Source of the DNA: Candidatus Enterocola sp.
GTDB taxonomy: Bacteria; Bacteroidota; Bacteroidia; Bacteroidales; Paludibacteraceae
Length of the DNA: 64,000 bases
Direction of reading: 5' to 3'
Assembly: GCA_045633865.1 (NCBI GenBank)
Contig: JAZQZD010000021.1
Span: 2,915-66,914, forward strand
Shown here: in pieces, positions 1,707 to 58,483 of the stretch
How positions within the stretch are numbered: the first letter of the stretch is position 1
Layout: every line of letters begins with the position of its first letter
Position numbers and translations under genes: made by a program
The notes under the pieces: model-generated
Databases searched by the model: none
Seen by the model: only the letters and a program-made list of their open reading frames with translations
Told to the model about the DNA's origin: nothing

Positions 1707-1744
1707 TAATTAGAACCTTAGTAAGAAAATAAAAAATACACGAT

Positions 1745-6484: not shown

Positions 6485-6490
6485 ATTAGT

Positions 6491-6518
6491 TAGGAGTGAG
6501 GAGTTAGGAGTGAGGAGT
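6491..6518 (+). repeat. Heptamer array (TAGGAGT/GAGGAGT)x4, starting 7 nt after the stop codon; it also forms the 5' arm of a hairpin with 6523..6534
   Basis: taggagt gaggagt taggagt gaggagt. gttaggagtgag pairs with ctcattcctaac (one G.U pair). Confidence 0.85.
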
Positions 6519-6568
6519 TATTCTCATTCCTAACCACAAAACCTAATAAATATAGAATAATTCAGAAT

Positions 6569-7073: not shown

Positions 7074-7107
7074 GTTGCTTAGTTAATGATTTATCAAGTA
7101 TTCTCTG

Positions 7108-7180
7108 CTGCCTCGACCTCACCGTCGGGGCAGTGGTGTTTTTAGCGGGGTGTTCTCTCTTTGTCGGGGCAGTTGTGTGT
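7108..7180 (+). repeat. Degenerate copy of the GGGGCAGTGGTGTGTT long-hairpin element, with the 3' arm motif duplicated in tandem
   Basis: ctgcctcgac...gtcggggcag hairpin followed by tggtgttttt, then a second gtcggggcagttgtgtgtt. It shares GGGGCAGTGGTGT and the downstream TATTGCRGATKGGTTT with the copy at 13604..13701. Confidence 0.5.
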
Positions 7181-7250
7181 TATTGCGGATGGTTTTATTT
7201 TGTTTAAGTAGTAAATTTAAATAATAAACGAAGGTTTTAATAAAAATTAT

Positions 7251-13796: not shown

Positions 13797-14435
13797 ATGA
13801 CAGATGGAATATTTGAATCAATTTCACAGGGAATCAGTAGAGAGAAAACTCAGGAAAATAGAAGAATTCAAGAAATCGCCGATGAACTCAGAAGACGCTG
13901 TTGCATATATGAGAAGAAATATGGAACTAGCAGCTCAAATGTAAGCATAGTACTAGAAAGAAAAGTTGCAGAAGAATTTGCTTCTGAGTTAGACCTATGG
14001 TTGCCAGTTAAACAAATGTTCGAAATAGGGGAACCAGGTCCATCTGGTAATGAGAATGATACTTATATTAAGCAAGAACATATTTACAAAGTTAATAACT
14101 TATTAAATAGTCAAGGAAGTGTCATACGACTATTTGATAAGGTAATACTACATAATACAATTTTCCCAGAAACTTCATACACATTTTATAAATTCACAGG
14201 ATTTAAGGGTAGTTCTATTATGCCAATATTTAGGCAAAATTTTATAAAGAACTCTTCTCCCGCTACTCAAATAGAGATTACCACGTATATGGCGGCTCTA
14301 GGCTTTGAATCTACAGAAAAGAAGGGCTGTTATACAAATTCTAAATATAAAGTTTGGGATGTGCTTCCTAGAAATGTTTTAAAGGATAAGGATGGTGATA
14401 TTTTCGTAATAGATGCAGAAATAGAATTATTATAA
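13797..14435 (+). CDS. Hypothetical protein; possibly a stand-alone small atypical kinase-fold domain of the type fused to polyvalent proteins of mobile elements
   Basis: ATG start with its own -7 box and a strong terminator. GNENDTYIK...IYKVNN (Gly-rich/ATP-site-like), HNTIFPETSY, and DVLPRNVLKDKDGDIFVIDAE (D-x4-N catalytic-loop-like plus a VID metal-binding-like motif). The function is an inference from recalled family patterns. Confidence 0.45.
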   Translation: MTDGIFESISQGISREKTQENRRIQEIADELRRRCCIYEKKYGTSSSNVSIVLERKVAEEFASELDLWLPVKQMFEIGEPGPSGNENDTYIKQEHIYKVNNLLNSQGSVIRLFDKVILHNTIFPETSYTFYKFTGFKGSSIMPIFRQNFIKNSSPATQIEITTYMAALGFESTEKKGCYTNSKYKVWDVLPRNVLKDKDGDIFVIDAEIELL

Positions 14436-14685: not shown

Positions 14686-15327
14686 ATGAAAGAATTACCT
14701 TCTTTTATGATAGACTCAACCTTAACAGACGGTAGGGCAGAAACTATAATTGATTTTATGTTGTCGTGGTGCATAAGGTGTGCATCCATAGAGTACAAGG
14801 TGGAAGAGTACAAGATATTTCACAATTATTGCCGAAATATCCTAGCGAAATTGTTGGGAATTGAAAAGATAAACGATGATATACAATTTCAAAATATCCA
14901 AGTATGGAAAGGATGCCAATACATAGACTTGTGGGTAGAGTTGGAAGTAAAAGAAAATGAGCAAATAAACAAACATGCCATACTAATTGAGGATAAATAT
15001 TACGGACCATTAAGACAATGTAAAGATGACGACGGGGAGTATAGAAATCAATTGTTTGTATATAAAAAGAGGTTTGATGCGCATTACGAATCGGTTCGCA
15101 AAGAACAAGAAAAAAAAGGTCTAAAGCCAGAAGTTTGGCTTCCGCATTATGCACTAGTAACCTGTATTAAAAAGGAACCCCAAAAATTTGCGATATACGA
15201 CGCAGCAGGCGATTTAGGTTTTAATAAGTTCTACATAAAAGAACTTTTAGGTGAAATAAATAACAATCCAGCAGAAACCGAGAGTGACATATTCAATGAA
15301 TTCTGGTTCAGGTGGTTAAGCGACTAA
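14686..15327 (+). CDS. Hypothetical protein with a PD-(D/E)XK nuclease-like motif
   Basis: ATG start. YIDLWVELEV ... HAILIEDKYY gives a D ... E-x-K arrangement on predicted adjacent strands, as in PD-(D/E)XK nucleases. I recognise no other family. Confidence 0.45.
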   Translation: MKELPSFMIDSTLTDGRAETIIDFMLSWCIRCASIEYKVEEYKIFHNYCRNILAKLLGIEKINDDIQFQNIQVWKGCQYIDLWVELEVKENEQINKHAILIEDKYYGPLRQCKDDDGEYRNQLFVYKKRFDAHYESVRKEQEKKGLKPEVWLPHYALVTCIKKEPQKFAIYDAAGDLGFNKFYIKELLGEINNNPAETESDIFNEFWFRWLSD

Positions 15328-15370: not shown

Positions 15371-18300
15371 ATGAAAAATTTTACAAACAATTTTAAACAA
15401 TTTACCTCGCGCCTAAGCGCAAGGTGGCTTATTTTGGCCCTAATGATGCTTGTTGGAACAAGTAGTGCGTGGGCTAAAATATTTTATTCAGGAGACATTA
15501 TTTATGTAGATGCAACTGATTGCTCATGGTATGAGGGCGATGGATGTAATGCTTCAATATATTTTTGGGGAACAAATACCACTGGGCCTACTCACATGAC
15601 TAGAATTGCTGAAAGAATATACTCTTACACATTCACTAGTCAAATGAATGTAAGTAATTTTAAAGTATTTAGACAACCTACATCAAGTTCTGGTTGGGAT
15701 AATCAATATAATGGATTTGAAGGAAACTTTGATTCAATGGGTTCACATAATACTATCAAGGTAAACTCAAGCAGTAATGGTTTCTCTTGGTCTACCTACA
15801 CCCCTCCTTGCACTCCTCCAACATTAACATTAACAACAACATCTGCTACTGTTAACAAAGGAGAAACTGTTAACCTAACTACGTTGTCGGTAGCAACAGC
15901 AAGTAATGGTGGTACGATAGAATGGTCTACTAGTACAACTGGAAGCCCTGTAATTGATGCGAATGTCACTATATCTGCAACTAAAACATATTATGCAAAG
16001 GCAGTAAAAGACGGTTGTAAATCTGCTTCAAAATCTATTACAATTACAGCTGCTTGTTCAAAAGACTTCTATTTAGTAGGTTCTGATGCCACACTTTTTG
16101 GTACCGCATGGGAACCAAAAATTGAAGCAAATAAAATGGTTTGTGATCTAAATACATTAACAAAAACATATACAAATATAACTGTTGCTGCAAATACAAC
16201 AATAGAATATAAATATACAGGTTCAAGTGGTTGGGGAGATGCAGAATACCCTTCAAGTGGTAATGCATCATTTACAATTCCAACTGCAGGAACTTACAAT
16301 ATTACATTTACAGCTACCACTGATGGCAGTAAAATTACTGGTACTCCAGCTGTCACTTGGGAACAATCTTGCACCTCTGCTAAAGTAACTATATCAGATT
16401 GGAATATTTCAACTTTGTGCCCTGGTTCTTCTGGAACATTTAAATACACAGCTGCTCAAGGAGTTACTGTAACATGGGAAATGAATGAAAACAATAGTGA
16501 CTACGCAATAGTTTCGGACAATGGAACAGTAACTATTACATATAAAGGAACTTCTACTACAAATTCAAATAAACTGTTATATACTGTTTCAGGTGATGGC
16601 ATTTGTCCAGAAGAAGATGTAGATTCTAAAAAAACAATTTCTACAGCGGCTAAACCATCAATTTCTGCGTTGTCAGACCCAACTCAGACTATTTGCGATG
16701 GCACTAATGCTACTTTAACTGTAACTTCAGGCAAAGGAACCTACAATTGGGTAAGTTCTAATGGAGGAGAAGAAATAACATTAACTTCTAACTCTGTGCC
16801 AGTTAGTATAGCAGGAACATATACTGTTACTGCGACACAAAATGGTTGCGAAAGCGAACCTATTGAATTTACAGTTTCAGTAACTCCTGTTCCTGCCATT
16901 AACGATTTTGATATTACTCTTCCAAATAATCCAACATACAATGGTAGGCCACAAAATGCAATTGTAACTCCTAAGAATGGAATTACAGGTATGGGAGATG
17001 TAAATATTAGTTATTATAAAGGAGGTCAAAAAACAGACCCAATTAATGCAGGCGAATACACAGTAAAAATCTCTGTTGCAGCAGGTGACTCTTATTGTGC
17101 AATGGACGAGACAGAAATCGGCACATTCACTATCAACAAAGCAGATCAAACAACCGCATTAACTATTACTGCTTCTACAAATATCTGTGGCAAAGAAGCT
17201 ACATTCTCTGTAACTGGTGGCGATGGTACAGGAGATTACTCATATTCATTAGATAAAAATGATGCGGGAGTTTCATTAAATGGCACTACATTAACTGCTA
17301 CACAAAATGGCTCTGTTACTTTAAAAGTAAAAAAACTAGGTGACACAAACTATAATGATTCACAAGAAACAACAAAAGAGTTCAACTTCACAATGCCAAT
17401 TGAGAATGTAGAATTGGCCATTATAGAAGGTGAAAGTGCAACTGGTAAGTATTGTGTTGGACACCAAATCAAGTTCCAATTAACATACACTGGTTCTACT
17501 CCTACTTTTGATACAGAAAACTTCAGTTGGATTTTAGATAATTTTGAGTCTGAAATAAGCAATAATGTTGGAGGTATTGCATCTGGTGCAACATGGACAA
17601 CTACATTAGGTGCAAATGACACATCTTTAAAATTAAAATTAAAAGATTGCAACGGAAGTTGGAAAGAATCTACACCTATTACATTTGAGGTATATGAACG
17701 TCCAAGTGCTCCTGTATTTAATCCAAACTCTATTACAGTTTGCCAAGGTCAACCATTTACACTTCCTGGATCAGAAGCAGAAGGTTATATCTGGAGCGAT
17801 GCAACAGGCAAACCAACCACACCAAATAAGCCAAATGGTATAGATGCTACTGCAGAGTACTACGCTGTAATTAGCTTTGGTTGCCCTTCTGATGCAACTT
17901 TGTATACTGTCAATGTAAATAAGATTCCTACAATAACAGGTGCTTCTGTAACACAAACAAATAAAGAGATTACTTTGGAATCAGCTGCAGGTGCAGACAC
18001 AGAGTGGTCTGTAAGTCCTACAGAAAACGTAACATTAACAGATAATCGTGATGGCACTGCCACATTTGTTGCTACAGCAAATGGCGACTACACCATCACT
18101 GCTTCAAATGGTGTTTGTGCTCCTGTTTCTCACACAATCAAAGTTAGTGACGCCTTCTACATTTGGGTGCGTAATGCGAAAGAAAGTGATACTGCATATG
18201 GTCAGTTTTACTATCCTAACGAGAACTCAGAAGCAGTTCGTGGTGGTGCTATGTTCTATGCAGAATGCGATGCTCTTCCAACTAAAGACAATTATACCAC

Positions 18301-20677
18301 TTATAACAGAGGTGGACGCAAAGCTGATATTGTAAATGATGACTGCGACGGATACACATGGTATGGTTTTAAAGCTAGTGCAGACGTAATAGCAGGAACT
18401 AAATATTTCTATGTTCATGCTACAAATGACCTAAGTGATGGTGGCTACTATACCCACTCAAAACCACTAAAGAGCGCCTTATCTGGTGATGTATATTATA
18501 CACTAGGAACTACTGGAGATAGTTATAAAGGTTGGAATCTATCAACTGCTTCGGCTCCTTACGCAGGTCCTAAAGTTTATGCCCTAGGTTCAACCGTACT
18601 TGGCACTAACAAATTTGCAGCGCTTTATGTGACAGATTGTTCTGGTAAAGAAATTACAGGTTATCAATGGTATAAAGATGGACAACCTTATTCTTCTGTA
18701 TGCTCTTACGTAGGCAAAAAAGGTGCAGAAGATAGCAATGCAGGTTTAAGCAACAACATTCGTCCTGCAGAAGCAGGTAACTATAGCTGTACTGTAACTT
18801 ACGAAGATGGTACTACAGCTACTTCTGCAGCAGTTGAGATAAGTGGTTCTTATAATCGTTCATTTACCTCTAACATACCTGTTTTAGTAGTAAATACAGG
18901 TAGTAAAGGTTTCCCAGATTGTACTGGTTTGAGCGGTCAAACTGCATCAAAAAATGCTTCTACATTTAAAGAGAAACGTTCTGTTGATGTTAAGATATAT
19001 GAAGGTGAAACACTAGTTTACGACCGTAAGGCTCGCATGAACTACCGTGGTTCTTCATCGCTAAACTTTGTAAAGAAATCATACGCATTCTGTCCAGGCG
19101 ATGCTAATTGCGAAGAAAAAGATGGTCAAGCAGATTACGTAAAAACAGCCAAACTAAATATGCTTGGCGTTGGTACTGCATGCGACAAAGATTGGGTTCT
19201 TTATGCTGCCGCAGCAGACCCTTCACTTATGCGTAACCGCCTAGTTTTTGACTCTTATAAAGCAATGACAGGTAAATGGGGCGTAAATAGTCGATATGTA
19301 GAACTTATTGTTGATGGCGTATACAAAGGTGTTTATGTATTCATGGATAAAATTACTATGAACAATGACCGTGTAAAAATAAATGAAGATAAAGGTTTTA
19401 TAGTAAAATTTGATAAAACCGACAGAGAAGACCGCGTAGGTGGTCTCAATGGTGTATTTGGAGACGAAAAAACCTTTAAAACATCACATACTGGTAAGGA
19501 TGATATCGGCACCTACGATACTAGCATCGACCAACGCTTTGAAATAGAATACCCTGAAAAAGATGATTATAAAACAGGTTGGAAAGCAAGAGTGGATGGA
19601 ATTCAAGGTATGTTCCAAGCCTTTGAGGACGCTCTAAAACAAGGCGATTATGCTACCGTACAAAAATACATCGACTATACATCTTGGGCAGATTGGTTCA
19701 TCATTAATGAATTTACCAAAAACGTAGACGCCTATCGTGCAAGCTGTATCTTCGTTTATACAGGCGAAGCAGGTGCTAAAATTGAGGCTCGTCCACTTTG
19801 GGACCAAGAGTTGAGTTTCAATAACCAAGCTTCAAATGGTACTAGCGATAAAGGTAGCAATTCTACTACAGGTTTATTAATACAACACTCTAATGTATAC
19901 TCTGATGCATTTGGAGCACCATTCTGGTTTACTGGTGGTGGTTCAGATATAACAGGAGGTTTATTAAGCGACCCATGTTTTGTGCAAGTAGTAAAAGAAC
20001 GTTGGAATATGCATCAATCTGGTGCTTTGAGTAAGAAGTCATTAGAAGATTTAGTTGATGAATATGAAGACGACCTAGCTCCAGAAGGAACTACTGAAAA
20101 TGCACTAAAACGTGAAACCACATTCTGGATAGGAAAAAGCCGTGGCACATGTGATTGTAGTTACGATACAGACAATGCTACTGCAACTGGTTATCAAAAC
20201 AAAACTTTCGAAGAATCTAAAGGTACTATTACCAATTGGATAAGCGATGCTGCTGCAAGCGAAGCCAAAGGTCGTCGTGCTGGTCTTACTACAGCAATTA
20301 ACGGTTTAACCGGTGCAAGCTTTAGCATTCAAATTATTCCATCTGAAGCTAAAACAACCCCATGGGAACCTGTAGAAATAGCAGTTAGCGTAACACCAGC
20401 TGGTTATGATTATAAGTTGGAATATACCGACAATGACTTGGGTAGTGTGGCAAACACAATTATAAAAGAAGAAGGTGACAAAATCACTTATCGCATTCCT
20501 CGTCCTAGTGCATGGGGAACAGGTGATGCAGAAGAAGGCGCACGTGCTGATATTGAATATGGCATTAAAGCTACGTTGAGCGTTCAAGAAGGTACTACCG
20601 TTTGCGGTAGCCAAGCTGCCCCATCTTCAACTGGCAAAATTATCTTGCAAGACGAAGATAATGACAACTGTAAATAA
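15371..20677 (+). CDS. Giant (1768 aa) secreted protein: extended signal peptide, CBM-like and Ig-like/MBG-like repeats, C-terminal CotH (atypical kinase) domain; no recognisable T9SS CTD
   Basis: Signal peptide ending TSSAWA. Cys-flanked Ig-like repeats (e.g. ICDGTNATLTVTSGKGTYNWVSS...GTYTVTATQNGCES). MBG-like unit (YNGRPQ...NAGEYTVKISV...FTINKA). CotH blocks from ~residue 1190 (NYRGSSSLNFVKKSYAFCPG ... RYVELIVDGVYKGVYVFMDKIT ... IDQRFEIEYPEKD ... YRASCIFVY ... RPLWDQELSFNN). It ends ...VCGSQAAPSSTGKIILQDEDNDNCK. Confidence 0.85.
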   Translation: MKNFTNNFKQFTSRLSARWLILALMMLVGTSSAWAKIFYSGDIIYVDATDCSWYEGDGCNASIYFWGTNTTGPTHMTRIAERIYSYTFTSQMNVSNFKVFRQPTSSSGWDNQYNGFEGNFDSMGSHNTIKVNSSSNGFSWSTYTPPCTPPTLTLTTTSATVNKGETVNLTTLSVATASNGGTIEWSTSTTGSPVIDANVTISATKTYYAKAVKDGCKSASKSITITAACSKDFYLVGSDATLFGTAWEPKIEANKMVCDLNTLTKTYTNITVAANTTIEYKYTGSSGWGDAEYPSSGNASFTIPTAGTYNITFTATTDGSKITGTPAVTWEQSCTSAKVTISDWNISTLCPGSSGTFKYTAAQGVTVTWEMNENNSDYAIVSDNGTVTITYKGTSTTNSNKLLYTVSGDGICPEEDVDSKKTISTAAKPSISALSDPTQTICDGTNATLTVTSGKGTYNWVSSNGGEEITLTSNSVPVSIAGTYTVTATQNGCESEPIEFTVSVTPVPAINDFDITLPNNPTYNGRPQNAIVTPKNGITGMGDVNISYYKGGQKTDPINAGEYTVKISVAAGDSYCAMDETEIGTFTINKADQTTALTITASTNICGKEATFSVTGGDGTGDYSYSLDKNDAGVSLNGTTLTATQNGSVTLKVKKLGDTNYNDSQETTKEFNFTMPIENVELAIIEGESATGKYCVGHQIKFQLTYTGSTPTFDTENFSWILDNFESEISNNVGGIASGATWTTTLGANDTSLKLKLKDCNGSWKESTPITFEVYERPSAPVFNPNSITVCQGQPFTLPGSEAEGYIWSDATGKPTTPNKPNGIDATAEYYAVISFGCPSDATLYTVNVNKIPTITGASVTQTNKEITLESAAGADTEWSVSPTENVTLTDNRDGTATFVATANGDYTITASNGVCAPVSHTIKVSDAFYIWVRNAKESDTAYGQFYYPNENSEAVRGGAMFYAECDALPTKDNYTTYNRGGRKADIVNDDCDGYTWYGFKASADVIAGTKYFYVHATNDLSDGGYYTHSKPLKSALSGDVYYTLGTTGDSYKGWNLSTASAPYAGPKVYALGSTVLGTNKFAALYVTDCSGKEITGYQWYKDGQPYSSVCSYVGKKGAEDSNAGLSNNIRPAEAGNYSCTVTYEDGTTATSAAVEISGSYNRSFTSNIPVLVVNTGSKGFPDCTGLSGQTASKNASTFKEKRSVDVKIYEGETLVYDRKARMNYRGSSSLNFVKKSYAFCPGDANCEEKDGQADYVKTAKLNMLGVGTACDKDWVLYAAAADPSLMRNRLVFDSYKAMTGKWGVNSRYVELIVDGVYKGVYVFMDKITMNNDRVKINEDKGFIVKFDKTDREDRVGGLNGVFGDEKTFKTSHTGKDDIGTYDTSIDQRFEIEYPEKDDYKTGWKARVDGIQGMFQAFEDALKQGDYATVQKYIDYTSWADWFIINEFTKNVDAYRASCIFVYTGEAGAKIEARPLWDQELSFNNQASNGTSDKGSNSTTGLLIQHSNVYSDAFGAPFWFTGGGSDITGGLLSDPCFVQVVKERWNMHQSGALSKKSLEDLVDEYEDDLAPEGTTENALKRETTFWIGKSRGTCDCSYDTDNATATGYQNKTFEESKGTITNWISDAAASEAKGRRAGLTTAINGLTGASFSIQIIPSEAKTTPWEPVEIAVSVTPAGYDYKLEYTDNDLGSVANTIIKEEGDKITYRIPRPSAWGTGDAEEGARADIEYGIKATLSVQEGTTVCGSQAAPSSTGKIILQDEDNDNCK

Positions 20678-20713
20678 TTAGAACCTTAGTAAGAAAAATA
20701 AAAAATACACAAT

Positions 20714-23700
20714 ATGAAAAGATTTTATAACAATACATTAATCGGTGGGGCTTTCAGTAAAGCCCTACGAGTTGTAGCCTTACTTTGCGTTCTATTAGGC
20801 ATAAGTGGCAATGCATGGGGAGCATACTACCTACATTATAACAATACTGGTTCCCACACCAAAGATGTTGGTGCTTCTGATTTAAAATGGACAGATGGAG
20901 TAGAGCCAGTAGATAATGTATGTACTTGGACAATCTCAACTTCAGCATGGGATAACTATGTTTACATTATGTCTAGTAAAACTAATAAAACAATTTTAGA
21001 TATTACTGGAGCTACGATTTCAAATAAATCATCAAATATAGATTTTGGTAATATTTCTGACCATAATAGTAAAAAACTATTCTATTTTAAGCAAAAAAGT
21101 GCTAAACAAATAACAATAACAATTACCTATAATCTATCTACAAAGGTTATTACACTTGCAGACGGTAGTGCTGGTACTTGTACCCCTTCTGCTACCATTA
21201 CAGGTGCATCTTATGATGGAACAAAAATTACGTTAAGCGGGACTGTAACTGAAGTATGTACAAGTAGTATTGTAACATGGTACGGTTGGCAATATAAAAC
21301 TGATGTTAATGCAGATTGGTCTACTAGTACGTATATAGAAGGAAAGGGAAAGGCTGGTTCTAACCAACATCAAACAACAACATCTCCTCTTAATTATACT
21401 AATACTTGGACAGGATTTGAAGAAGGTAAAACCTATTATTTTAGAGCTTATGCCCTTCAGGGTTCAACATGGTACTCAGACAATAAAATCTTATCTGTAA
21501 CCATCCCCAAAGGTGGTGGTAGCACAGGAGAAGCCGATTGTAGTGGTGTGGTTTATTTGGATCCAAATATATACGTTGGAGATGATGCTTGGTTTGCTGC
21601 TTATTTCTTTGGTAATGAAGATATATGGGTTGAAATGACACCTGCGTGTGATGGTTTATATAAAGCAATGATTCCAGATGGAGCCACAGGAGTAACTTTT
21701 GTTAGAAAAAATCCAGCTGATAAAACACTTGAGAGCTGGAATAATAAATGGAATCAAACTGTTGATTTACAAATACAGACTAATAAATATTTTAAGGTAG
21801 AAAATTGGAATGCTTCAGATGGTAAGGAAACAGGTACTTGGTATGATACCGATTGCACCGATGGTTGTATACCTGCTGAGCAACCTTCTACCAACGTGCT
21901 ACTTTCTCGCGAGGCGATTGTAAACAAATCTGCTAAAACAGCACAACTTTTTGGTTACCTAAAATCAATTAAGGCACCAGATTGTCCAACGTCTGAAATT
22001 GCTGATTATGGTTTCTTCTATTGCATGGTAAACGATGGTGATACACCTTGTACTCCTACTCCAACTTCAAGCAGTACAAAAATAGCTGCAGATCCAAGTC
22101 CGGCCTTGTCACGTGGCATGGAATTTACTGCAACAGTTGGTCTTATTAAAGAACCATCTGATGCTCTTCAAGATGGTAAAACATATTACTATCGTGCGTA
22201 TGCAAAAATTGATGATAAATATATTTTATCTGGTGAGATTCGCTCATTTAGCACCGACCCTTGTATTCCTCAATACGGTGGTTTGTCTGATAAATACAAT
22301 GGTAAACCTATTGTATATACCATCAATGCAGATCCTTCGTTTGCAGCCAACGACTGTAAATTGCACTTTAACTCATTGCAAGCTGCTATCGACCACCTAA
22401 AAGCAACCAATACAAAAGATGATGACTTTAAGTATGTAACTTTGAATAATGGTTCATATAACTTGAATCAACCAGTAGAAATGCGAGTAGTTTACTACGA
22501 CGATACCCCAGATGATAATACTAAAACTTATATCTATAGAGGTAAAGAGATTGGTGAAAACGAATCTTTTGTCTATGCTGGTGACGACAAACCTGCAAAT
22601 GCCAATCTGATCCAGGATTTTAATAAATCAGGAGCAGATGCCAAAAATACACTATCTATTAAAGCTGGTAGCGATAAAGCAAAACCTTGGATTCACCACA
22701 TTGTAATACGTAATAGTAAGAACATACTATTAGACTCTCTATGTATTTATTCTGATCCAAAAGATTATGATGCAACAAAAGCTGGTAATCAACTAAAAAG
22801 TGATAACGCTTTAGAAATAGACATCAATACAACCAAATGGAATATGATTGAAGTGCAAAGCGATTGCAACTCGTATACAAGATCAGATAATGATGGTAGC
22901 TTAACATTTACCAATATGTGCGATGCTAATATTGTGGTACAAAACTGTATGATTGGTTCTGCTGGTTTTACAGGATTGCACCTATCTGCATACGATGGTA
23001 TTACCTTTAAAAACAATGAATTTGAAGCAATATTTAGTGCTCAAGCAGATAATAATGTGAAGCATAGAAATATGATTAATTATGGTGCTTCAGCTAAATT
23101 TGTTGCATGTAAAAACATCAAGTTTATTCAAAATAACTTCCGTGGCTCGCACCCTACACTAATGTGGTTGCAAGAGTGTCAGAATGTACTTATTATGAAT
23201 AATGTATTCTGGTACACCAATGAATTAGACAAGAAAAATGCTTCTGATGCCAATGCGGATACACCTGACAATGCTGCATTGCGACTTGTACACCAATTTG
23301 GTGCAAAAGATAGTGTAGAAAACGTTGCTGCTTATTATAATACATTCTATGTAGCAGAAACCGATGTAAAAGATAAGTACAACTTCTTGTATTTTTCTAA
23401 TACAGTTAATAATAATAGTTCATCGAATGCAAAATTTAAAATTAATACTATTTATTTCAAATATAACAATTGTTATAGCTACGATTCTGGAGTTCCAGGA
23501 AGATCAAATAGTAGTAAGACGATTACGGATAATAATAGACAAAACGCTGCCTATATTCCCGAACCTTTCTTAGGTAAGGACGTAGCGACAAACAATTTCT
23601 GTCCTAACAACTTCTGGAGTGAATATGACCAAATAGAATACAACAAACTTGCAGAAGATAAAAAAGCAAGTTATGTTTCTGCTTTTGCATTTGGCTGTAC

Positions 23701-25702
23701 AGATAATGAATTTATAAACGTTAAAAGCCAAGTATGTTCTACTACAGCATCTGGTCCAGCTTCATTAATAGTAAAAGGTAAAGGTATGGATTATGGTGTT
23801 AAACCTGATATTAGCACAACAGGTATTACACTAGAACCTAATGAACAATATGCAGACCGCTATATCATAGGTGCACGTCCTGCAAATGGAGAGAAATGGA
23901 CTTATGGTGCATACCAAAGTAAAGATGAAATAACTACTCAAACTATCTATTGGGTTGGTGTTTCTAGTGATTGGGATGACCGCAACAACTGGGAATACGA
24001 AACAGAGGTTGATGGTAAAATGGTTCGTCAACGTGTATCTTGTATCAATACACTTTCTGAAGATTTAAAAGTAGTAATTGAAGAAATTGGTACTGTAGAA
24101 ATTGCTGGTGGTAGAAAATGGCCTCAAGTACCTGCAAGCTTTACAGAGAATAGAACCAATAGCGAATACGATGAACACGTATCTGCTGGTTTAGGTACCG
24201 GTAAAACTCCTACCAAGTTCGCTAGTACTATCGAACTAGAATATGGTGCTGGTCTAAGAGGTGTGGAAAACTTAAATGATGGAACTATGCGTTACGACCA
24301 AGCAATTGTTCATTTCGATGCAGAACGCAACAAATGGTTGCTAGTTGGTCCTATCATTAGACCATTTGACACAGAGAAAAATGATGGAACAACACGTAAT
24401 GTAAATTCTGGTGACTATTTCAGAAACTTTGAACCTCAAATTTATATGCACGGAACTGTAGTGGATGGTAACACTATTTCTTGGGGCAAAACATTTGGAG
24501 ATTTGAATGTAAATGTAACACCAGATACTGTATTTGCAATTAATGCATCAGTTCTATATGGTAAATATTACGACACAGCAGAGGATTACCTAAAATATGA
24601 AGGTATTAAAGTGGATGATAAAGCTCCAATACCTTACAGATTTACTGGTCGTTTTGCTGTAGAGGAGTATGAAACAGAAGGTGCATACCAATATACACTA
24701 AAGAAAACCAACGATAAGAACCTTATAAACAACGTTTATCCATGTAACCTTGATGCTAAATATATAGAAGAACAAGGATTTGGTACCATTAACGTATATG
24801 ACTATAACATAGCTTCGTTTGTAAGTACTAGCGAAGCAAGTCCAACGGGCAACGTTTATATCAAAGCTCAAAATGGTTTCGTGTTTACACCAAATGAAGG
24901 TAAACAATTAAAATTGACCAATGATATTCTTGCAGAAGGTTCTACACGTACTCGTGCAGGAGAAATTCCTTTACCAACATTCTCACTAAATGTGGATAAT
25001 GCGAATACAACAAAACCTGGTGCAAGTAACATTGTAGTACGCTACGACGAGTTCTTAGGTACATCTGAAGAATCTCTTCTTAACACACCAAAAGTATTTA
25101 CCAGAAATTCTGACACACCAGAAGCATACATCATTCACAATGATGGTAAATATACTCGTTTAGATGCTGGTAAAGAAAAAGTAACTATCCCATTGGGTGT
25201 ACGTTTAATGAAACCAATGAACTTAACATTTGAAAAAGTTTATAACGAAGGTTACGACGAAGTAGTATTAGTAGATACAAAAACTCAAAAATTCTATAAC
25301 CTACTAAAACGTACATACACTACAGATGTGTTAAGCGAAGGTGATACAGAAGGTCGTTTCTATCTAAACTTAACTGTTTCTGGCGATGATGACCTTGACG
25401 ATGAAGGTGATAACCCAGGAGGAGACGATATTGTAGATGATGATGATGTTTCTACTGAAGTGGAAGAAACTATTGAAGAACCTCAAATCAACATCTATAC
25501 TGTAGACAACAGTATTGTTAGAGTTTCTTCTGTCGGCACAGTTCTAAAAACTATTTACGTAAGTGATATGACTGGTCGTACAGATGAATACAGCGTAGAT
25601 GGTAATTATGTAGAACTTCAATTGCCAGTTTCTAGCGGTGTTTATACTGTAACAGTAGTAGGTGAAACAGCAAGTAAAATAGGAAAAGTGATACTTAAAT
25701 AG
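20714..25702 (+). CDS. Giant (1662 aa) secreted right-handed beta-helix protein with a T9SS C-terminal sorting domain (paralog of 1745..6484)
   Basis: The signal peptide is near-identical to the paralog. Beta-helix repeats (IVVQNCMIGSAGFTGLHLSAYDGITFKNNEFEA, IKFIQNNFRG, LIMNNVFW). Shared blocks WDDRNNW, LVGPIIRPFD and EGRFYLNL. Acidic linker, then CTD ...IYVSDMTGRTDEYSVDGNYVELQLPVSSGVYTVTVVGETASKIGKVILK. Confidence 0.8.
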   Translation: MKRFYNNTLIGGAFSKALRVVALLCVLLGISGNAWGAYYLHYNNTGSHTKDVGASDLKWTDGVEPVDNVCTWTISTSAWDNYVYIMSSKTNKTILDITGATISNKSSNIDFGNISDHNSKKLFYFKQKSAKQITITITYNLSTKVITLADGSAGTCTPSATITGASYDGTKITLSGTVTEVCTSSIVTWYGWQYKTDVNADWSTSTYIEGKGKAGSNQHQTTTSPLNYTNTWTGFEEGKTYYFRAYALQGSTWYSDNKILSVTIPKGGGSTGEADCSGVVYLDPNIYVGDDAWFAAYFFGNEDIWVEMTPACDGLYKAMIPDGATGVTFVRKNPADKTLESWNNKWNQTVDLQIQTNKYFKVENWNASDGKETGTWYDTDCTDGCIPAEQPSTNVLLSREAIVNKSAKTAQLFGYLKSIKAPDCPTSEIADYGFFYCMVNDGDTPCTPTPTSSSTKIAADPSPALSRGMEFTATVGLIKEPSDALQDGKTYYYRAYAKIDDKYILSGEIRSFSTDPCIPQYGGLSDKYNGKPIVYTINADPSFAANDCKLHFNSLQAAIDHLKATNTKDDDFKYVTLNNGSYNLNQPVEMRVVYYDDTPDDNTKTYIYRGKEIGENESFVYAGDDKPANANLIQDFNKSGADAKNTLSIKAGSDKAKPWIHHIVIRNSKNILLDSLCIYSDPKDYDATKAGNQLKSDNALEIDINTTKWNMIEVQSDCNSYTRSDNDGSLTFTNMCDANIVVQNCMIGSAGFTGLHLSAYDGITFKNNEFEAIFSAQADNNVKHRNMINYGASAKFVACKNIKFIQNNFRGSHPTLMWLQECQNVLIMNNVFWYTNELDKKNASDANADTPDNAALRLVHQFGAKDSVENVAAYYNTFYVAETDVKDKYNFLYFSNTVNNNSSSNAKFKINTIYFKYNNCYSYDSGVPGRSNSSKTITDNNRQNAAYIPEPFLGKDVATNNFCPNNFWSEYDQIEYNKLAEDKKASYVSAFAFGCTDNEFINVKSQVCSTTASGPASLIVKGKGMDYGVKPDISTTGITLEPNEQYADRYIIGARPANGEKWTYGAYQSKDEITTQTIYWVGVSSDWDDRNNWEYETEVDGKMVRQRVSCINTLSEDLKVVIEEIGTVEIAGGRKWPQVPASFTENRTNSEYDEHVSAGLGTGKTPTKFASTIELEYGAGLRGVENLNDGTMRYDQAIVHFDAERNKWLLVGPIIRPFDTEKNDGTTRNVNSGDYFRNFEPQIYMHGTVVDGNTISWGKTFGDLNVNVTPDTVFAINASVLYGKYYDTAEDYLKYEGIKVDDKAPIPYRFTGRFAVEEYETEGAYQYTLKKTNDKNLINNVYPCNLDAKYIEEQGFGTINVYDYNIASFVSTSEASPTGNVYIKAQNGFVFTPNEGKQLKLTNDILAEGSTRTRAGEIPLPTFSLNVDNANTTKPGASNIVVRYDEFLGTSEESLLNTPKVFTRNSDTPEAYIIHNDGKYTRLDAGKEKVTIPLGVRLMKPMNLTFEKVYNEGYDEVVLVDTKTQKFYNLLKRTYTTDVLSEGDTEGRFYLNLTVSGDDDLDDEGDNPGGDDIVDDDDVSTEVEETIEEPQINIYTVDNSIVRVSSVGTVLKTIYVSDMTGRTDEYSVDGNYVELQLPVSSGVYTVTVVGETASKIGKVILK

Positions 25703-25707
25703 GTAGT

Positions 25708-25735
25708 TAGGAGTGTGGAGTTAGGAGTGAGGAAT
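25708..25735 (+). repeat. Heptamer array (KAGGAGT-like x4) starting 6 nt after the stop codon
   Basis: taggagt gtggagt taggagt gaggaat. The homologous array is at 6491..6518. Confidence 0.8.
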
Positions 25736-25736
25736 T

Positions 25737-25813
25737 TTGCGAGTAAGCGAGGGCAGTGATAAGCTTGCTTAAGCACTGCCGAGCGAAAGCAAAATCACGA
25801 GCGCAGCTCGTAA
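25737..25813 (-). repeat. MITE/REP-like two-hairpin element, copy 1 (reverse orientation), inserted in the spacer between the beta-helix gene and the small gene
   Basis: The core taagcttgcttaag is flanked by ggcagtg/cactgcc arms, with a second hairpin acgagc-gca-gctcgt. The segment is absent from the otherwise homologous spacer at 6519..6568. Confidence 0.75.
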
Positions 25814-25845
25814 CTTCTATCCTAAGAAATAAAAAATTATAGATT

Positions 25846-26268
25846 ATGAAAAATAGATATTTTATTTTAAGTATATTGTTTTGGGCTATCGCCTCAGTTT
25901 GTTTAGCGATTAAATTGCCTGCTTCTCCATTTATTTCAGAATATGCATACGCAGACTCTGATAATGAATCTTATGTATCTAGTATTGGCACCCAAATTAT
26001 GAATCATGCTATGCTAAGTGCGTATAATGGTGAGTGTGATGAATATAGAGAAGGTGGTCAATTATGGCAAGGTGATGCCAATGGTTGTACTGAATGTTGT
26101 GATCGCAACTTCCCTTCTGGTGTTGACCGTGAAGGACGTGCAAAATGCTATGATATGTGTGATACTCCACTTGGTATGCCTCTAGGTACTACACTTTGTT
26201 TAGCACCTTTCGCACTTGCCTATGCTGGTTTTATGTTCTACCGTCGTAGAAAAGAAAATGCAGAATAA
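25846..26268 (+). CDS. Small (140 aa) Cys-rich protein with an N-terminal signal/anchor and a C-terminal MPLGT + hydrophobic helix + RRRK tail (paralog of 6569..7012)
   Basis: N-terminus MKNRYFILSILFWAIASVCLAIKLP. CTECC and CYDMC motifs. It ends TPLGMPLGTTLCLAPFALAYAGFMFYRRRKENAE. Confidence 0.6.
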   Translation: MKNRYFILSILFWAIASVCLAIKLPASPFISEYAYADSDNESYVSSIGTQIMNHAMLSAYNGECDEYREGGQLWQGDANGCTECCDRNFPSGVDREGRAKCYDMCDTPLGMPLGTTLCLAPFALAYAGFMFYRRRKENAE

Positions 26269-26290: not shown

Positions 26291-26388
26291 TAATAAAGAT
26301 TTAACATAAGTACAATTAATTTTTCTAAACCTCACACTGCCCTGCCGGACATGAGATTTTGTTCTCACCGGTAGGGCAGTGGTGTGTT
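26291..26388 (+). repeat. ~100-bp long-hairpin intergenic element, copy 3 of 3
   Basis: 13-bp stem actgccctgccgg / ccggtagggcagt (one G.U pair) with a ~19-nt loop. The left flank is identical in pattern to 13604..13647. Confidence 0.7.
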
Positions 26389-26400
26389 GAATAAAAACAC

Positions 26401-31318: not shown

Positions 31319-31340
31319 CTCCTAACTCCTAACTCCTAAC
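31316..31340 (+). repeat. Heptamer array (TAACTCC)x3.5 filling the whole ruvA-sprA spacer
   Basis: The first unit contains the ruvA TAA stop. The array ends directly at the sprA TTG start. Confidence 0.9.
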
Positions 31341-34300
31341 TTGAAGAAGTTTTTCTACATATTAGCATTACTTTCTGTTTCGCTTGCGGTTTTCGCTCAG
31401 GCGACAGGGGATAGTATTGCCAATAAAGAAGAGTCTCAGCTTCGTTTTCCTATTCCTAAAAACTACGTTGAAAATTACAACGACCTTGGTCAATCTACAC
31501 CTGCGTCACTTCCTATTCCAGACAATGTGGTTACAGAGGTGGTTTACGACCCAGATACAGACAGATATTATTTTCAATCAAAAGTTGGTGACGAAGACCT
31601 AGGAACTCCTTTTTATCTTACAAGTGAAGAGTTTGCAGAATACCAAGCTTTAAGGTCTCAACAAGAATATTATAAAGCAAAAGTGAGCGAAGAAAAGGGT
31701 AAAAAACATGAAATTTCGTTCACAGATATGAAGTTTGATATTGGCCCTGCCGACAAGGTGTTTGGACCTGGTGGTGTGCAACTTAAGCTTCAAGGTTCTG
31801 TAGAACTTATCTTTGCTCTTCAATTTAAAAAGCTTAAAGACCCAGCGCTTAGCGAGCGTTCTCAAAATCCTGCTCCAACATTCGATTTTGATGAGAAAAT
31901 TCAGCTGAATGTGAGTGGTTCTGTGGGTGATAAACTGAATTTTGGACTTAATTACAACACAGAGGCTACTTTCGACTTCGACCAATCTATGCTTAAACTG
32001 CAATATGAAGGCAAGGAAGATGATATTATCAAAAAATTGGAAGCAGGTAATGTGAGTATGCCTCTTACTGGTTCTCTTATTACTGGTAATACTTCACTTT
32101 TTGGTTTTAAAACAGACCTTCAGTTTGGTAAACTTAATGTGAGTGCAGTGGTGTCTCAACAAGAGTCTGAGTCTCAAACTATTAATACTACAGGTGCTCA
32201 AACTACCGATTTTCATATTTCTATTGACCAATACGACGAAAATCGCCACTATTTCCTTTCTCATTTCTTCCGCGAACACTATGATGAGTGGATGAAGGAT
32301 GTGCCAAATATTTCATCTGGTGTGTCTGTCACAAATATTGAGGTGTGGGTAACTAATAAAAACTCAATTAACTATCAAAATACTACAAATGTGGTGGCTT
32401 TCGCCGATCTTGGTGAACCAGAACGCATTTATAATTCATCTTTTGCTTCTTCTGGAAGTATTCCTTCAAATGGTGCGAATACATTGTTCTCACAAGTGGT
32501 GCAAGCCAATAACGGTTTGCCAGATATTTATGAGGTGGATTCGTATCTGAAAGCTTGGAATATGGAGGCAGGTACAGACTTTGCAAAACTTGAAGGTGCT
32601 AGAAAACTAGAATCTTCAGATTATGTGCTAAACAAGGAATTGGGTTATATCTCATTGAAGTCTGCACTTAATAATGATGAAATTTTGGCTGTGGCCTATC
32701 AATATACCTACAAAGGTAAGGTTTATACTGTGGGTGAACTTAGTACTGCTACCACAGAAACTACGAAGCCACTTGCCCTTAAATTGCTGAAATCTACCGA
32801 CAAGTCGCCACTTCTTCCTACGTGGGATTTGATGATGAAGAATATCTATTCTCTTGGTGCATATCAAGTTCAGAGCAATAAGTTTACTCTGAATATTATG
32901 TATAAAAATGACTCTACAGGTATAGATTTACGTTATATCACAGAAGGTCCTATTGCCAAGAAACCTCTTTTATGGGTAATGAACCTAGACCATTTAGACT
33001 CTCAACAAAATGAAAAACCAAATGGTGATGGTATGTTTGACTTTGTAGAGGGTTATACTATTATTTCACAAAATGGTAAAATTATCTTCCCAGTGGTGGA
33101 GCCTTTTGGTTCGCATTTGGCTAAAAAGCTAAACAACGACCCTTATTTAGTGAAGAAATATGTTTACCAAGAGCTTTATGATTCTACATTAACCACAGCT
33201 CAAGAGTTTGCTGAAAAGAATAAGTTCTATCTTGAGGGTGAATATCGTGCTTCTTCTGGTAGCGAGATTAGGCTAAATGCTATGAATGTGCCTAAGGGTT
33301 CTGTGAAGGTTACTGCTGGTGGTGTGCAACTTACTGAAAATGTGGACTATACCGTCGATTATATGATGGGTGTGGTAACCATTATGAATCAAGATCTTAT
33401 AGATTTAGGTACTCCTATTAGTGTTACTATGGAGAGCCAATCTATGTTTAATATGAAGCGTAAGTCTCTTATAGGCACACACTTAGACTACGCATTCACC
33501 GACAACTTCAATGTTGGGGGTACTGTGATGTACCTTTCAGAAAAACCTCTTACAGAAAAAGTTGGCTATGGCGACGACCCTGTAGCAAATACTGTATGGG
33601 GCTTGAATATGTCGTATAGAGACCAATTTCAATCTGTTACCGATTGGTTAAATAAACTGCCTATACTCAACCTTAAGCAAGCTTCTACTGTGGCATTTGA
33701 TGCCGAGTTTGCTCACATGATTCCTGGCACGGCCAAGGGCGCGCAAGGTAAAGTTTATGTAGATGACTTCGAGTCTACTACAGTTGGTTATGATGTTAGA
33801 TATGCAAGCAATTGGCGTCTTGCAAGTACTCCTTCTAGATTTGCGGAGTCTGGTTTGTCAAACAATATTGAGTATGGCAAAAACCGTGCTTTGCTTTCTT
33901 GGTACTACATAGACAATATGTTTAACCAATCTACATCTAGCACTCCTAGCCATATCAGAAAGGATAAACAACAACTTTCAAATCATTTCGTTCGTCAGGT
34001 TTCTGAAAATGAAATTTTCCCAAATAGAGAGTTGGTTTATGGTCAGTCTAGTTATATTCAAACTTTAGACTTGGCTTATCATCCAACAGAACGTGGTCCT
34101 TACAATATTTATGCAGAAAACTTCGATTCTGAGGGTAAACTTATCAATCCAGCTACTAAGTGGGGTGGTGTGATGCGTAAGTTGGAAACTACAGACTTTG
34201 AGACCAACAATATTGAGTACTTAGAGTTTTGGGTAATGGACCCATTTGTGTACAACGATGGTACAATGACTGGTGGTGACCTTTATTTCAACTTCGGTGA

Positions 34301-37300
34301 TATTTCTGAGGATATTCTAAAAGATGGTCGTAAGTTCTATGAAAATGGACTTCCTGTGGAATTGGACGAAAGTGCAATAGTTTCTACCGTTTGGGGTAAG
34401 GTGCCTACAAAACAATCTGTTGTTTATGCATTTGATGCCACAGAGGCTGCTAGAAAAGCTCAAGATACTGGTCTAAATGGTCTTTCTACAGAGCAAGAGT
34501 TCAATCATGAATCTTATAAGACATTCGTAGAAAAACTATCTGCCAAACTTTCTCCAGATGCTCGTCAGAGAATGATGGAAGATAAATTCTCTCCACTCAA
34601 CGACCCTGCTGGTGACAATTTCCACCACTATCGTGGCACAGACTACGACAATGCCGAAGTAGGAGTGTTGGAACGTTATCGTTATTATAATGGTACGGAG
34701 GGCAACTCTCAAACCACATCTGAAAACGAGTCTTATACCACAGCTTCTTCAAACAAACCAGATTATGAAGATATCAATGTGGATAATACTTTGAGCGATA
34801 GTGAAAAATATTTTGAATATAGGGTTTCACTTCGTCCAGAGGATATGAATGTGGGTCAAAACTATATCACAGATATGGTTACCTCTTCTGTTACTCTTAA
34901 AAATGGAGAAACAGGTACAGTGCGTTGGTATCAGTTCAAAATTCCACTACGCGATGCAGACAATTATACTTCTTATGGTAGCATTCGTAGCTTTAAGTCT
35001 ATACGTTTTATGCGTATGTACTTAACTGGTTTCACTCACGATGTAAACTTAAGGTTTGCTAGAATGGAACTAGTAAAAGGTGAATGGAGAACATATCAAA
35101 AAGAACTTGACAAGGCAAATCATAATGATGCCACAATACTAGAGGTGTCTTCTGTAAACATTGAAGAAAATGCTGACAAACAACCAGTAAACTATGTGTT
35201 GCCTCCAGGTGTTTCTCGTGAGATAGACCCTTCTCAACAACAAGTTCGCCAAGAAAACGAACAGTCTATGGTGCTTAGAATACACAATTTGTATCCAAAA
35301 GATGCTCGTGCTGTGTATAAGAAATTTGGTGGTTATGATATGCGTCAGTATGGAAAACTTGAAATGTTTGTCCATGCAGAGGCTCTACCAGAAGATGATA
35401 CCAATCTAACTGATAGAGATATGAAGTTGTTTATCAGATTGGGTTCAGATTATCAAAACAACTATTATGAATATGAGGTGCCTCTTACCCTTACACCAGC
35501 TGGTATTTATTCTAACAATACCACATCGGATCGCAAGGTTGTATGGCCAAGCGAAAATAAAATAGAATTACCATTGGAGCTTCTTACCAACCTTAAAAAG
35601 GCACGTAATGAAGAGAAGAATCGTAACCACTCTTCTGTAACCAACCTAACAGAATATTCTACACTAGACCCTGCAAATCCTAACAATAGAATTACTATTA
35701 TGGGTAACCCAAGTTTGGGCGAGGTGGAAGTGTTTATGATTGGTATTCGAAATGCTTCAAAGGCAGTGAAGAGTGCAGAGGTGTGGGTAAATGAACTTCT
35801 GCTTACAGACTTCGATGAGCAAGGCGGTGTGGCTGCTCGTGCTAGTTTGGATATTGCTCTTTCAGACTTCATTACACTTAATGCTGCTGGCCGTATAGAA
35901 ACAATTGGTTATGGTGGTATAGAACAAAAAGTACAAGAGCGTCGTCAAGACGATTATTATCAATACAATGTGAATGCTGGTATCGACCTAGGTAAACTAT
36001 TGCCAGAAAAGGCTAATACTGTCATTCCTATTCGTTATTCTCTTTCTCATGAGATTGTAAATCCAAAATACAATCCGCTAGATAAGGATATTTTATTGAA
36101 GGATGCTCTAGAAGCTACAGCAAATAAAGAACAACGCGATTCTATTTTAAATGTGGCTCAAGATATGACCATGACTCAGAGTCTTTCTGTGCCTGGTATT
36201 CGTGTGGGTATTACAAGCAAAGATGGTCCACGTCCTTGGGACCCTGCAAACTTCACAGTAGGTGGCTCTTACTCTCAAACAGAGTCTCGCGATCCAAATA
36301 CTACTCGTGAGGTAGAGCAATATAGCAATGCTTATGGTCAATATGAATTCTCTTGGAGTCCAAAACCTGTAGAACCATTTGCCAAGATTAAGTCTATTCA
36401 AAACAATAAGCACATGAAGTGGCTTACTGATTTTGGTTTCTACTATGCTCCTAAATTGTTCTCTTTCAAAACAAACTTTGTGAGAAACTACTATGAGCAA
36501 GTGACAAGGGATTTTGAAAATCCAGACCAAAAAATGGACCCAACATTTGCCAAAGATTTCATGTGGAGCAATGAGTTCGACCTTGCTTGGGATATTACAA
36601 AAAATATCAAATTCACATTTACATCTAGCAACAATTCTCTTATCACCGAAAATGATGGAGGTGTAAATAGCGAGTTGTATCCAGATGAATATGAAATGTG
36701 GAAGGATTCTGTTTGGAATAGCCTTTCTCACTTAGGTTCTCCTCAAGACTACAACCAACGTGTTACATTGTCTTGGAATGTTCCATTCAATAAAATGCCT
36801 GCTCTAAACTGGATTCAAGGTAATATTAAGTATGATGGTACTTACCAATGGTTAAGTGGCACAGATATTATTGCCAATACTGCTATGAGTAAAGGTACTA
36901 TTCAAGCAGATGGTAAATTCAATTTTGAATCTCTTTACAACAAGTCTGAATATTTAAAAGAGATAAATAGAAAGTATGGTTCTACCAATGCTCCAAAACC
37001 TAAGAAACAAAAAGAGTATAACCAGAAACTTAAACTTCAAGCTGGTGATACTGTTGTGGTTCGCCACCGTTTGAACGATAAGAAGGTGAGAATTAAAGCT
37101 ACAGCAGATGGTAAAGCTGTGCAATTAAAACATAAAGTGCTTGATGCAAACAGTATTAAAGTGTTTGCAACAAAAGGTGCTGAGGTGGAACTTACAGTAA
37201 TTTCTGGTGGTCCTCAACCTGCCAATATGGTATTTACCGATGTGTTGGCTCGTGTAGCTATGCTTATCAGAAATGTATCGTTCAATTACTCTCAAACAGA

Positions 37301-58478: not shown

Positions 58479-58483
58479 TTTAA

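Follow-up and report, generated by a model that had tools for sequence, protein, structure and literature searches.

C-terminal sorting signals of the LPXTG, PEP-CTERM and GlyGly-CTERM kinds are each common to unrelated proteins and co-occur with the enzyme that handles them, and the dedicated single-target sortase systems of Haft's descriptions usually have the enzyme gene adjoining that of the target. In Bacteroidota, to our knowledge, only the C-terminal domains of the type IX secretion system (T9SS) and the lipoprotein export signals are well established. Against this background, we consider here a stretch of 64,000 nucleotides from Candidatus Enterocola sp. (Paludibacteraceae; positions 2,915 to 66,914 of contig JAZQZD010000021.1, assembly GCA_045633865.1), which in its full length is henceforth called the window. 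The list of its open reading frames includes, on the + strand, two small genes for Cys-rich proteins of 147 and 140 amino acids (copy 1 and copy 2; Table 1), both of which end in a tail made of a short motif, a hydrophobic segment and a basic cluster. The original prediction, made from the letters alone, had offered two views of this tail, namely an uncharacterised sorting tag or a stop-transfer anchor of a disulfide-rich type I membrane protein. We find that, as far as our searches reach, the tail is specific to one family of small proteins, and we consider it most likely to be this family's own stop-transfer anchor of a type I inner-membrane protein and not a general sorting signal.

Direct reading of the sequence confirms that both proteins end in PLGT, a short Pro-containing hydrophobic stretch and an RR[KR][RK] cluster, and that a C-x3-C motif directly precedes each tail (C101-C105 in copy 2 and C110-C114 in copy 1). 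The architecture assigned earlier to 26161..26265 thus stands; the 34-residue string quoted for it does not, as it omitted the leading Asp of a tail of 35 codons. The two copies are 39% identical overall and are paralogues; hence, their common tail architecture stems from common descent and not from convergence, and constitutes a single inherited feature instead of two. A crude six-frame scan of the window for a hydrophobic stretch followed by at least three Arg or Lys residues within 12 residues of a stop recovered only these two proteins.

Homologues of copy 2 form 29 clusters among 5.8 billion proteins, all of them metagenomic, 131-150 amino acids long except for one fragment of 108, and without a Pfam domain or an informative name. 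With one genome considered per GTDB species, the gene is confined to metagenome-assembled genomes (MAGs) of Candidatus Enterocola, Paludibacteraceae and 'uncultured Bacteroidales', which have two to three matches each; some of these MAGs bear SGB identifiers and one comes from sheep rectum. Carriers of the family include JAZKYP01, JAZOMZ01, JAZKXZ01, JAFWXW01, CALDPN01 and JAXJWL01. Pooling the homologue searches with the related loci gave 58 distinct members of about 131-166 amino acids with a common layout: a signal-peptide-like head (MKNRYFILSVLFWAIASV..A), a [VI]-x-L-P-x-S-x-[YF] motif directly after the likely cleavage site that is conserved at the mature N-terminus, a variable region of ~35 residues, a Cys core of the form C...CxxCC...CxxxC, and a linker ending in P-x-[GD]-x that leads into a hydrophobic segment, commonly LLLPFA[LI][AV]YA, and an R-[RK]-x-[RK] cluster. 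Pfam, NCBIfam, PHROGs and PADLOC scans of both window proteins gave nothing significant, and a Foldseek search of the better of two AF2 models against the PDB gave nothing at E<=0.001. The only hit of a profile search against the PDB, a Fas transmembrane peptide (E=2.2), was rejected as a chance transmembrane match, and the literature on XrtF/exosortase, on Enterocola and on CotH with T9SS held nothing bearing on these proteins. Judged from these searches, the family is both lineage-restricted and previously undescribed.

The distribution of the tail was assessed with a profile (A2) of 37 positions built from 20 tails of both types and run with plain HMMER against 1.84 billion representative proteins; at this length roughly 35 bits are needed for significance, and strongly diverged tails would escape. 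There were 31 matches at E<=0.001, of which 27 are proteins of 132-166 amino acids with the tail at the very end, together with the family head, the LPxSxY motif and the Cys core, and two are family fragments of 90 and 66 amino acids. The only apparent other carrier, the metagenomic P0054 (214 amino acids), joins a PlsY-like N-terminus to the family's own Cys core and tail and is most likely a chimera of assembly or gene calling. P0058 (5144 amino acids) was also rejected as an unrelated carrier, being repetitive and having neither the matched stretch nor a PLG[TS] motif. Within the reach of this profile, which stops short of diverged tails, no unrelated tail-bearing protein was found among the 1.84 billion representatives. 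Little weight is given to a word-indexed run of this profile, as it yielded just family fragments of 41-62 amino acids and missed known full-length members; across related loci totalling about 260 kb, the tail likewise sits on family members only. While the tripartite layout is present at the extreme C-terminus of all 58 members, sharing among unrelated proteins, the general mark of Haft-type sorting signals, is not seen for the tail in these searches, and none of the sorting-signal models of NCBIfam and Pfam matches the small proteins at E<=1.

As the original prediction had anticipated, the processing enzyme that a tag would call for is not in the window: its Pfam map, which comprises housekeeping and metabolic genes, a papain-like protease and the T9SS component SprA, holds no sortase, exosortase, rhomboid or CPBP protease, and none occurs in the gene module described below or in the flanks of the related loci. 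The genes 3' of the small gene vary by locus (DUF4062/HATPase, acetyltransferase, nucleotidyltransferase or permease, with a tRNA-Leu in the window) and include no proteases. Given the restriction of the tail to one homologous family, we regard the proposal of an uncharacterised sorting tag as unsupported by these searches. That proposal had come with the suggestion of a profile scan for the tail, and with the remark that confinement to the two paralogues, along with the lack of a co-varying enzyme family, would tell against it; confinement to a single small-protein family is what the scan returned.

Together with the head, the tail is the conserved part of the family. Averaged over pairs of members less than 50% identical overall (hereafter distant pairs), identity reaches 68% in the signal peptide, 67% in the mature N-terminal motif, 36% in the linker and motif, 54% in the hydrophobic segment and 56% in the basic cluster, while the ectodomain retains only 19% in its variable region and 25% in its Cys core. 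PLGT itself is only loosely a signature motif, for its place is taken across the family by PLGS, PLGE, PIGE, PTGS, PAGE, PVGE, PLDA/T/V/I, LDAS/LDAN or PLET. The shared core is P-hydrophobic-[GD]-x, often with a Pro next, which may also be written P-[LIVTA]-[GD]-[TSEA]. The near-invariant positions lie deeper in the tail, at one Leu, at a Tyr with a small residue after it, and at the leading pair of Arg: in the numbering of copy 2, Y126 and R133 are invariant and L119, A127 and R134 at least 90% conserved, with the first Arg invariant in an alignment of 30 sequences and at least 90% conserved in one of 53. Codon identity between distant homologues is 0.24-0.68 at the conserved tail residues as against 0.47-0.79 at the conserved cysteines. 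Being no higher than at the cysteines, it indicates selection at the amino-acid level and not recent gene conversion, which is thereby ruled out as the source of tail conservation, whereas at the gene's first ~12 codons it may have acted.

Those first ~12 codons (25846..25881 and 6569..6604 in the window, and their equivalents in related loci) are identical, synonymous sites included, in homologues with less than 55% protein identity, a pattern that suggests either recombination at the 5' end of the small gene or constraint on its DNA or RNA there. A further observation concerns two pairs of metagenomic members, P0007 and P0013, and P0012 and P0035, whose bodies are near-identical and whose tails differ (...TTLCLAPFALAYAGFMFYRRRKENAE versus ...PLLLLPFIA[IV]YAVIRRRK...), indicating that tails have been exchanged between family members.

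In the ectodomain, the number of Cys residues is even in all 58 members (six in 43, eight in 14 and four in one), the extra ones having been gained pairwise, and this points to intramolecular disulfides in an oxidising, extracytoplasmic domain. The head has a basic n-region, an h-region of 12-17 residues and a small-x-[AS] site before [VI]-x-L-P even where the h-regions are unrelated, and A21, L24, P25 and S27 are invariant or nearly so; this pattern is that of a Sec signal peptide, whose probable cleavage site follows the invariant Ala21. A lipoprotein N-terminus at Cys19 was considered and ruled out, as the Cys is not conserved and the residue at -1 is Val, not Gly, Ala or Ser. At the other end of the protein, the best 19-residue Kyte-Doolittle means (1.58 in copy 2 and 1.95 in copy 1) are within the membrane-spanning range, and the C-terminus lies only 6-11 residues past the first basic residue across the 58 members. 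The family therefore displays the features of type I bitopic proteins, with the signal peptide recognised by its sequence pattern, the C-terminal hydrophobic segment accompanied by positive charges, and the extracytoplasmic domain seen indirectly through the even Cys count. A first AF2 run with the 30-sequence alignment was poor (mean pLDDT 56), and the 53-sequence alignment raised the mean pLDDT to 68 for the 147-residue copy. In this model of copy 1, helices 78-95 and 100-116 form a confident hairpin (block means of pLDDT 85-91 for residues 81-110). The C-terminal helix comes next and is split at residue 128, two before Pro130, into segments 124-127 and 129-145; the first, weaker model of copy 2 has the same elements (helices 78-88, 95-106 and 119-139). 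The Cys core is thus predicted to be a disulfide-stapled helical hairpin that precedes a kinked transmembrane helix.

These observations are best accommodated by the alternative that the original prediction had itself offered, a stop-transfer anchor on a disulfide-rich type I protein. We propose that the Sec signal peptide would send the small protein across the inner membrane, that the hydrophobic segment of 14-18 residues would halt its translocation, and that the R-R-[KR]-[RK] cluster would be kept cytoplasmic by the positive-inside rule. The product would be a type I (N-out, C-in) inner-membrane protein with its predicted hairpin domain, stapled by 3-4 disulfides, on the periplasmic side. 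At one membrane interface the P-x-[GD]-x motif would then serve as helix cap and hinge, and at the other the invariant Tyr would be an interfacial aromatic residue; the tail may also make a specific helix-helix contact, and the motif would not be read as a protease or transpeptidase site. Because of its strict synteny with two giant genes, A and B, we infer from gene order alone that the small protein may serve as a dedicated periplasmic partner of protein A and/or protein B before the exit of B through the T9SS, whether as a tether, a holdase, an assembly factor or an inhibitor.

Several points weigh against so plain an anchor. Its hydrophobic span is short and helix-unfriendly by bacterial standards, with 14 residues in copy 1, only 14 uncharged residues between Glu and the basic cluster in 10 of the 58 members, and up to three Pro and one Gly in or just before the outer half of the segment. 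Moreover, in the distant pairs the segment is much better conserved than the ectodomain despite synonymous variation, which implies that specific residues matter and not just hydrophobicity. A short, Pro-containing span with conserved residues would fit a recognised, cleavable signal as well, and since these features go beyond what a generic anchor needs, family-dedicated cleavage and a specific helix-helix contact both stay live options. The reach of the searches bears on this too: that for enzymes covered the window and the flanks of related loci, so that a distal processing enzyme may lie beyond it, and the tail profile would miss strongly diverged carriers.

If the tail is a plain anchor, the finding is mostly an ordinary one and a candidate new sorting signal is removed. 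Even so, the outcome defines an undescribed family of small disulfide-rich membrane proteins without a Pfam, NCBIfam or PDB relative, and its strict coupling to pairs of CotH-type and beta-helix T9SS giants in an uncultured gut lineage provides a handle on the periplasmic treatment of very large T9SS cargos.

The giants in question are the first two genes of a module, A-B-C, in which the small gene (C) is always the last. Of 21 instances of the small gene, 20 have the B gene 9-167 nucleotides upstream and one, in L012, sits too near the locus edge to show what precedes it; the A gene lies upstream of B wherever enough upstream sequence is available (loci L001-L021). The module occurs twice in the window (6..7012 and 15371..26268) and two to three times per related MAG, and it matches no described system. 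Protein B has about 1480-1790 amino acids, a beta-helix and a highly conserved T9SS-type C-terminal domain ending in GVY..V.G..A...KVILK in the related loci; B2 is 34% identical to B1 and has weak matches to Por_Secre_tail and DUF6383, and a sequence search of protein B against the PDB gave only noise. With its SprA gene, the window attests to a T9SS in this organism, and the C-terminal domain of protein B is the one true sorting signal of the module. Protein A is likewise a giant secreted protein and often has a CotH domain; A2 is without a T9SS-type C-terminal domain and ends in ...IILQDEDNDNCK, which is conserved across loci; the C-terminal part of A1 is 45% identical to that of A2.

Table 1. 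Coordinates of the small Cys-rich proteins, their parts and the associated large genes in the window
Feature	Positions	Strand	Remarks
Small Cys-rich protein, copy 2	25846..26268	+	140 amino acids plus stop; third gene of module 2
Copy 2, predicted Sec signal peptide	25846..25908	+	residues 1-21, MKNRYFILSILFWAIASVCLA
Copy 2, Cys-rich core	26035..26160	+	residues 64-105; six Cys: C64, C81, C84, C85, C101, C105
Copy 2, tail	26161..26265	+	residues 106-140; 35 codons; D-TPLGMPLGTTLCLAPFALAYAGFMFYRRRKENAE
Copy 2, motif P112-L-G-T115	26179..26190	+	follows tail linker DTPLGM
Copy 2, hydrophobic segment T116-Y132	26191..26241	+	
Copy 2, basic cluster R133-K136	26242..26253	+	followed by the end, ENAE
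Small Cys-rich protein, copy 1	6569..7012	+	147 amino acids plus stop; eight ectodomain Cys; third gene of module 1
Copy 1, tail	6911..7009	+	residues 115-147; TEGSSLPLGTPLLLLPFALVYAFVRRKRKEETL
Copy 1, motif P121-L-G-T124	6929..6940	+	follows tail linker TEGSSL
Copy 1, hydrophobic segment P125-V138	6941..6982	+	only 14 residues, with Pro130
Copy 1, basic cluster R139-K143	6983..6997	+	followed by the end, EETL
Giant protein B2	20714..25702	+	1662 amino acids; signal peptide, beta-helix, T9SS-type C-terminal domain ending ...GKVILK; directly upstream of small gene 2
Giant protein B1	1745..6484	+	1579 amino acids; beta-helix, T9SS-type C-terminal domain; directly upstream of small gene 1
Giant protein A2	15371..20677	+	1768 amino acids; signal peptide, CBM20/Ig-like regions, CotH kinase-like domain (Pfam CotH E=1.4e-36)
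Giant protein A1, C-terminal part	6..1706	+	CotH (Pfam E=2.5e-30); gene extends beyond window start
SprA/Sov, T9SS outer-membrane translocon	31341..38582	+	TIGR04189, 2658.6 bits

Some further observations concern the module and its surroundings. The A proteins (20600..20674 and 1630..1703, and in related loci) terminate in a conserved acidic motif of the form ...[IV]-x-L-x-D-E-x-N-[DE]-x-C-x, and most have another Cys ~20 residues upstream. A free Cys in the small protein for an intermolecular disulfide to this conserved C-terminal Cys of protein A was ruled out, the ectodomain Cys always being even in number. Between the two modules, similarity is greater in the non-coding junctions than in the genes: the A-B spacers (1704..1744 and 20675..20713) are almost identical while the A and B proteins share only 34-45% identity, and the B-C spacers (6482..6568 and 25700..25845) both begin with a 14-nucleotide tandem repeat, AGTTAGGAGTG[AT]GGA. 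An intergenic 7-nucleotide tandem repeat, GGAGTTA/GGAGTGA (reverse complement TAACTCC), has 10 matches in the window against 0 expected; it occurs at 6488-6520, 25700-25733, 31316-31341, 46928-46942, 48495-48527 and 58482-58506, with one instance directly before the SprA start and two directly after the B-gene stops, and again in related loci (L010 9919-9947, L012 147-161, L017 9850-9864 and L019 9933-9947). A GC-rich inverted repeat containing GGGCAGTGGTG lies 3' of both small genes (7105..7203 and 26335..26395), and copy 1 is followed by a terminator-like hairpin with a T-run that overlaps a 39-nucleotide tandem repeat at 7124-7203; the position of these inverted repeats is as expected where an operon ends. 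Module 2 is closely preceded by genes for a 212-residue protein with a 'kinase of polyvalent proteins' domain (13797..14435; PF18762, E=1.8e-26) and a 213-residue protein without a family (14686..15327), which may together represent an inserted or mobile element.

Of the other explanations for the tail, the one that comes closest to the original tag proposal sees it as a cleavable sorting signal dedicated to this family, removed by a distal membrane enzyme (rhomboid- or rhombosortase-like, exosortase-like or other) that would recognise P-L-[GD]-x-P and the short Pro-containing helix, whereupon the mini-protein would be released, or attached to a lipid or glycan, to join the A and B surface proteins. 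We regard this as unlikely. It would account for a tripartite layout so near the C-terminus that only 6-11 residues remain from the first basic residue onwards, for a hydrophobic span of 14-18 residues with helix-breaking Pro and Gly in its outer half, for a conserved motif that abuts this span in most members, for the retention of specific tail residues at the amino-acid level despite synonymous change, and for the swapping of tails between near-identical bodies (P0007 and P0013), in which the tail behaves as a module. However, the tail sits on a single homologous family, no homologue of the ectodomain with another C-terminal anchor was found among the 29 homologue clusters, the motif is degenerate, admitting G or D at its third position and T, S, E or A at its fourth, none of the known sorting-signal models gives a match, and no candidate enzyme is encoded in the module, elsewhere in the 64-kb window or in the related-locus flanks. 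A more specific form of this explanation, with a new signal for one cargo family in T9SS-bearing gut Bacteroidales cut in the Pro/Gly-rich outer half (P-L-[GD]-x-P-L-L-L-L-P-F), seems to us more doubtful still; in the same improbable scheme, the enzyme would be intramembrane or membrane-associated and encoded elsewhere, and the mini-protein would leave with, or join, a surface complex of A and B. Were cleavage to occur, the tail would represent a further sorting system for Bacteroidota, and A-B-C would be a new three-component surface system in which the anchoring and release of C time or license T9SS export.

It is likewise improbable that the small proteins are two-helix hairpin membrane proteins, in which an uncleaved signal anchor pairs with the C-terminal helix, the Cys-rich part forms a periplasmic loop, and both ends are conserved through packing on each other or on a partner. 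The N-terminal segment is indeed unusually conserved, with 68% identity in distant pairs and W13, A16 and S17 invariant among closer members; positive charges at both termini (MKNR... and ...RRRK) would fit an N-in, C-in topology, and copy 1 has a faint match, below significance, to the PADLOC '2TM effector' (E=0.03). Yet divergent members with different h-regions of 12-13 residues still have the small-x-A/S site directly before [VI]-x-L-P, as expected of a cleaved Sec signal peptide (for example, MKKQILLIVMTLCAMSAMA before VSLP and MKLRLYILVLFSSLVTAVFA before VTLP), and the conservation of the head lies partly at the DNA level, with the first ~12 codons identical, which speaks against a purely protein-level constraint.

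Least likely, in our view, is that the conserved ends, the tail among them, are the recombination handles of a cassette-like variable surface-protein locus, kept alike by gene conversion between paralogous modules instead of by what the tail peptide does: module junctions more conserved than gene bodies (the A-B spacers and the shared 14-nucleotide B-C repeat), first ~12 codons identical at the codon level in distant homologues and a mosaic distribution of tail types would all suit it, but the codon identity of the tail, set against that of the cysteines, reveals amino-acid selection.

A stop-transfer anchor thus remains the preferred reading of the tail, and its place among the known systems can be stated in these terms. 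The likeness in layout to LPXTG, PEP-CTERM and GlyGly-CTERM signals that had been seen at the outset is real. With LPXTG/sortase signals, the tail has in common a motif, a hydrophobic segment and a basic cluster at the extreme C-terminus, and the L-P-L-G-T of copy 1 even has the composition of LPXTG. As was also said at the outset, PLGT is nevertheless not LPXTG: the tail has G-T where LPXTG has T-G, the Leu before the Pro is not conserved in the family, the third position takes G or D and the fourth T, S, E or A, and there is no match to TIGR01167 or another NCBIfam model (E<=1); further, the host of the small protein is a diderm member of the Bacteroidales with a T9SS, and the tail is on one family only. 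To PEP-CTERM and GlyGly-CTERM tags, the resemblance extends to the tripartite build, a span of ~14-18 residues, Pro and Gly at its outer end, an Arg-rich terminus and a secreted carrier in a diderm. In contrast to the exosortase-linked PEP-CTERM, P-E-P occurs in no member of the small family and TIGR02595 does not match; in contrast to the rhombosortase-linked GlyGly-CTERM, the start of the segment lacks a conserved GG (a few members have LGG upstream of PLG) and TIGR03501 does not match. Moreover, where those tags are found on many unrelated proteins with a co-occurring enzyme, the tail is found on a single family and has no enzyme gene nearby. MYXO-CTERM and other Cys-associated tags, compared here by the general description of the MYXO-CTERM model, parallel the tail in having a Cys motif a short way ahead of the terminal hydrophobic segment and its Arg cluster; in the small family, however, the final Cys precedes the motif by 7-15 residues and is part of an even disulfide set, and no NCBIfam model matches.

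Within the module, the T9SS C-terminal domain (type A; TIGR04183/DUF6383) is the sorting signal and is carried by protein B; it is a beta-sandwich of ~70-80 residues and not a transmembrane tail, and the small protein has none. Generic type I bitopic proteins have the same plan as the small family: a signal peptide leads, a domain outside the cytoplasm follows, and one C-terminal hydrophobic helix gives way to a short basic terminus in keeping with the positive-inside rule. The family differs from them in a span that is shorter, richer in Pro and far more conserved than an anchor needs, and in being undescribed. The tail is therefore excluded from the LPXTG, PEP-CTERM and GlyGly-CTERM classes, because their motifs are absent and their models do not match, and by this comparison it would work like a stop-transfer anchor while resembling a Haft-type tag in its layout.

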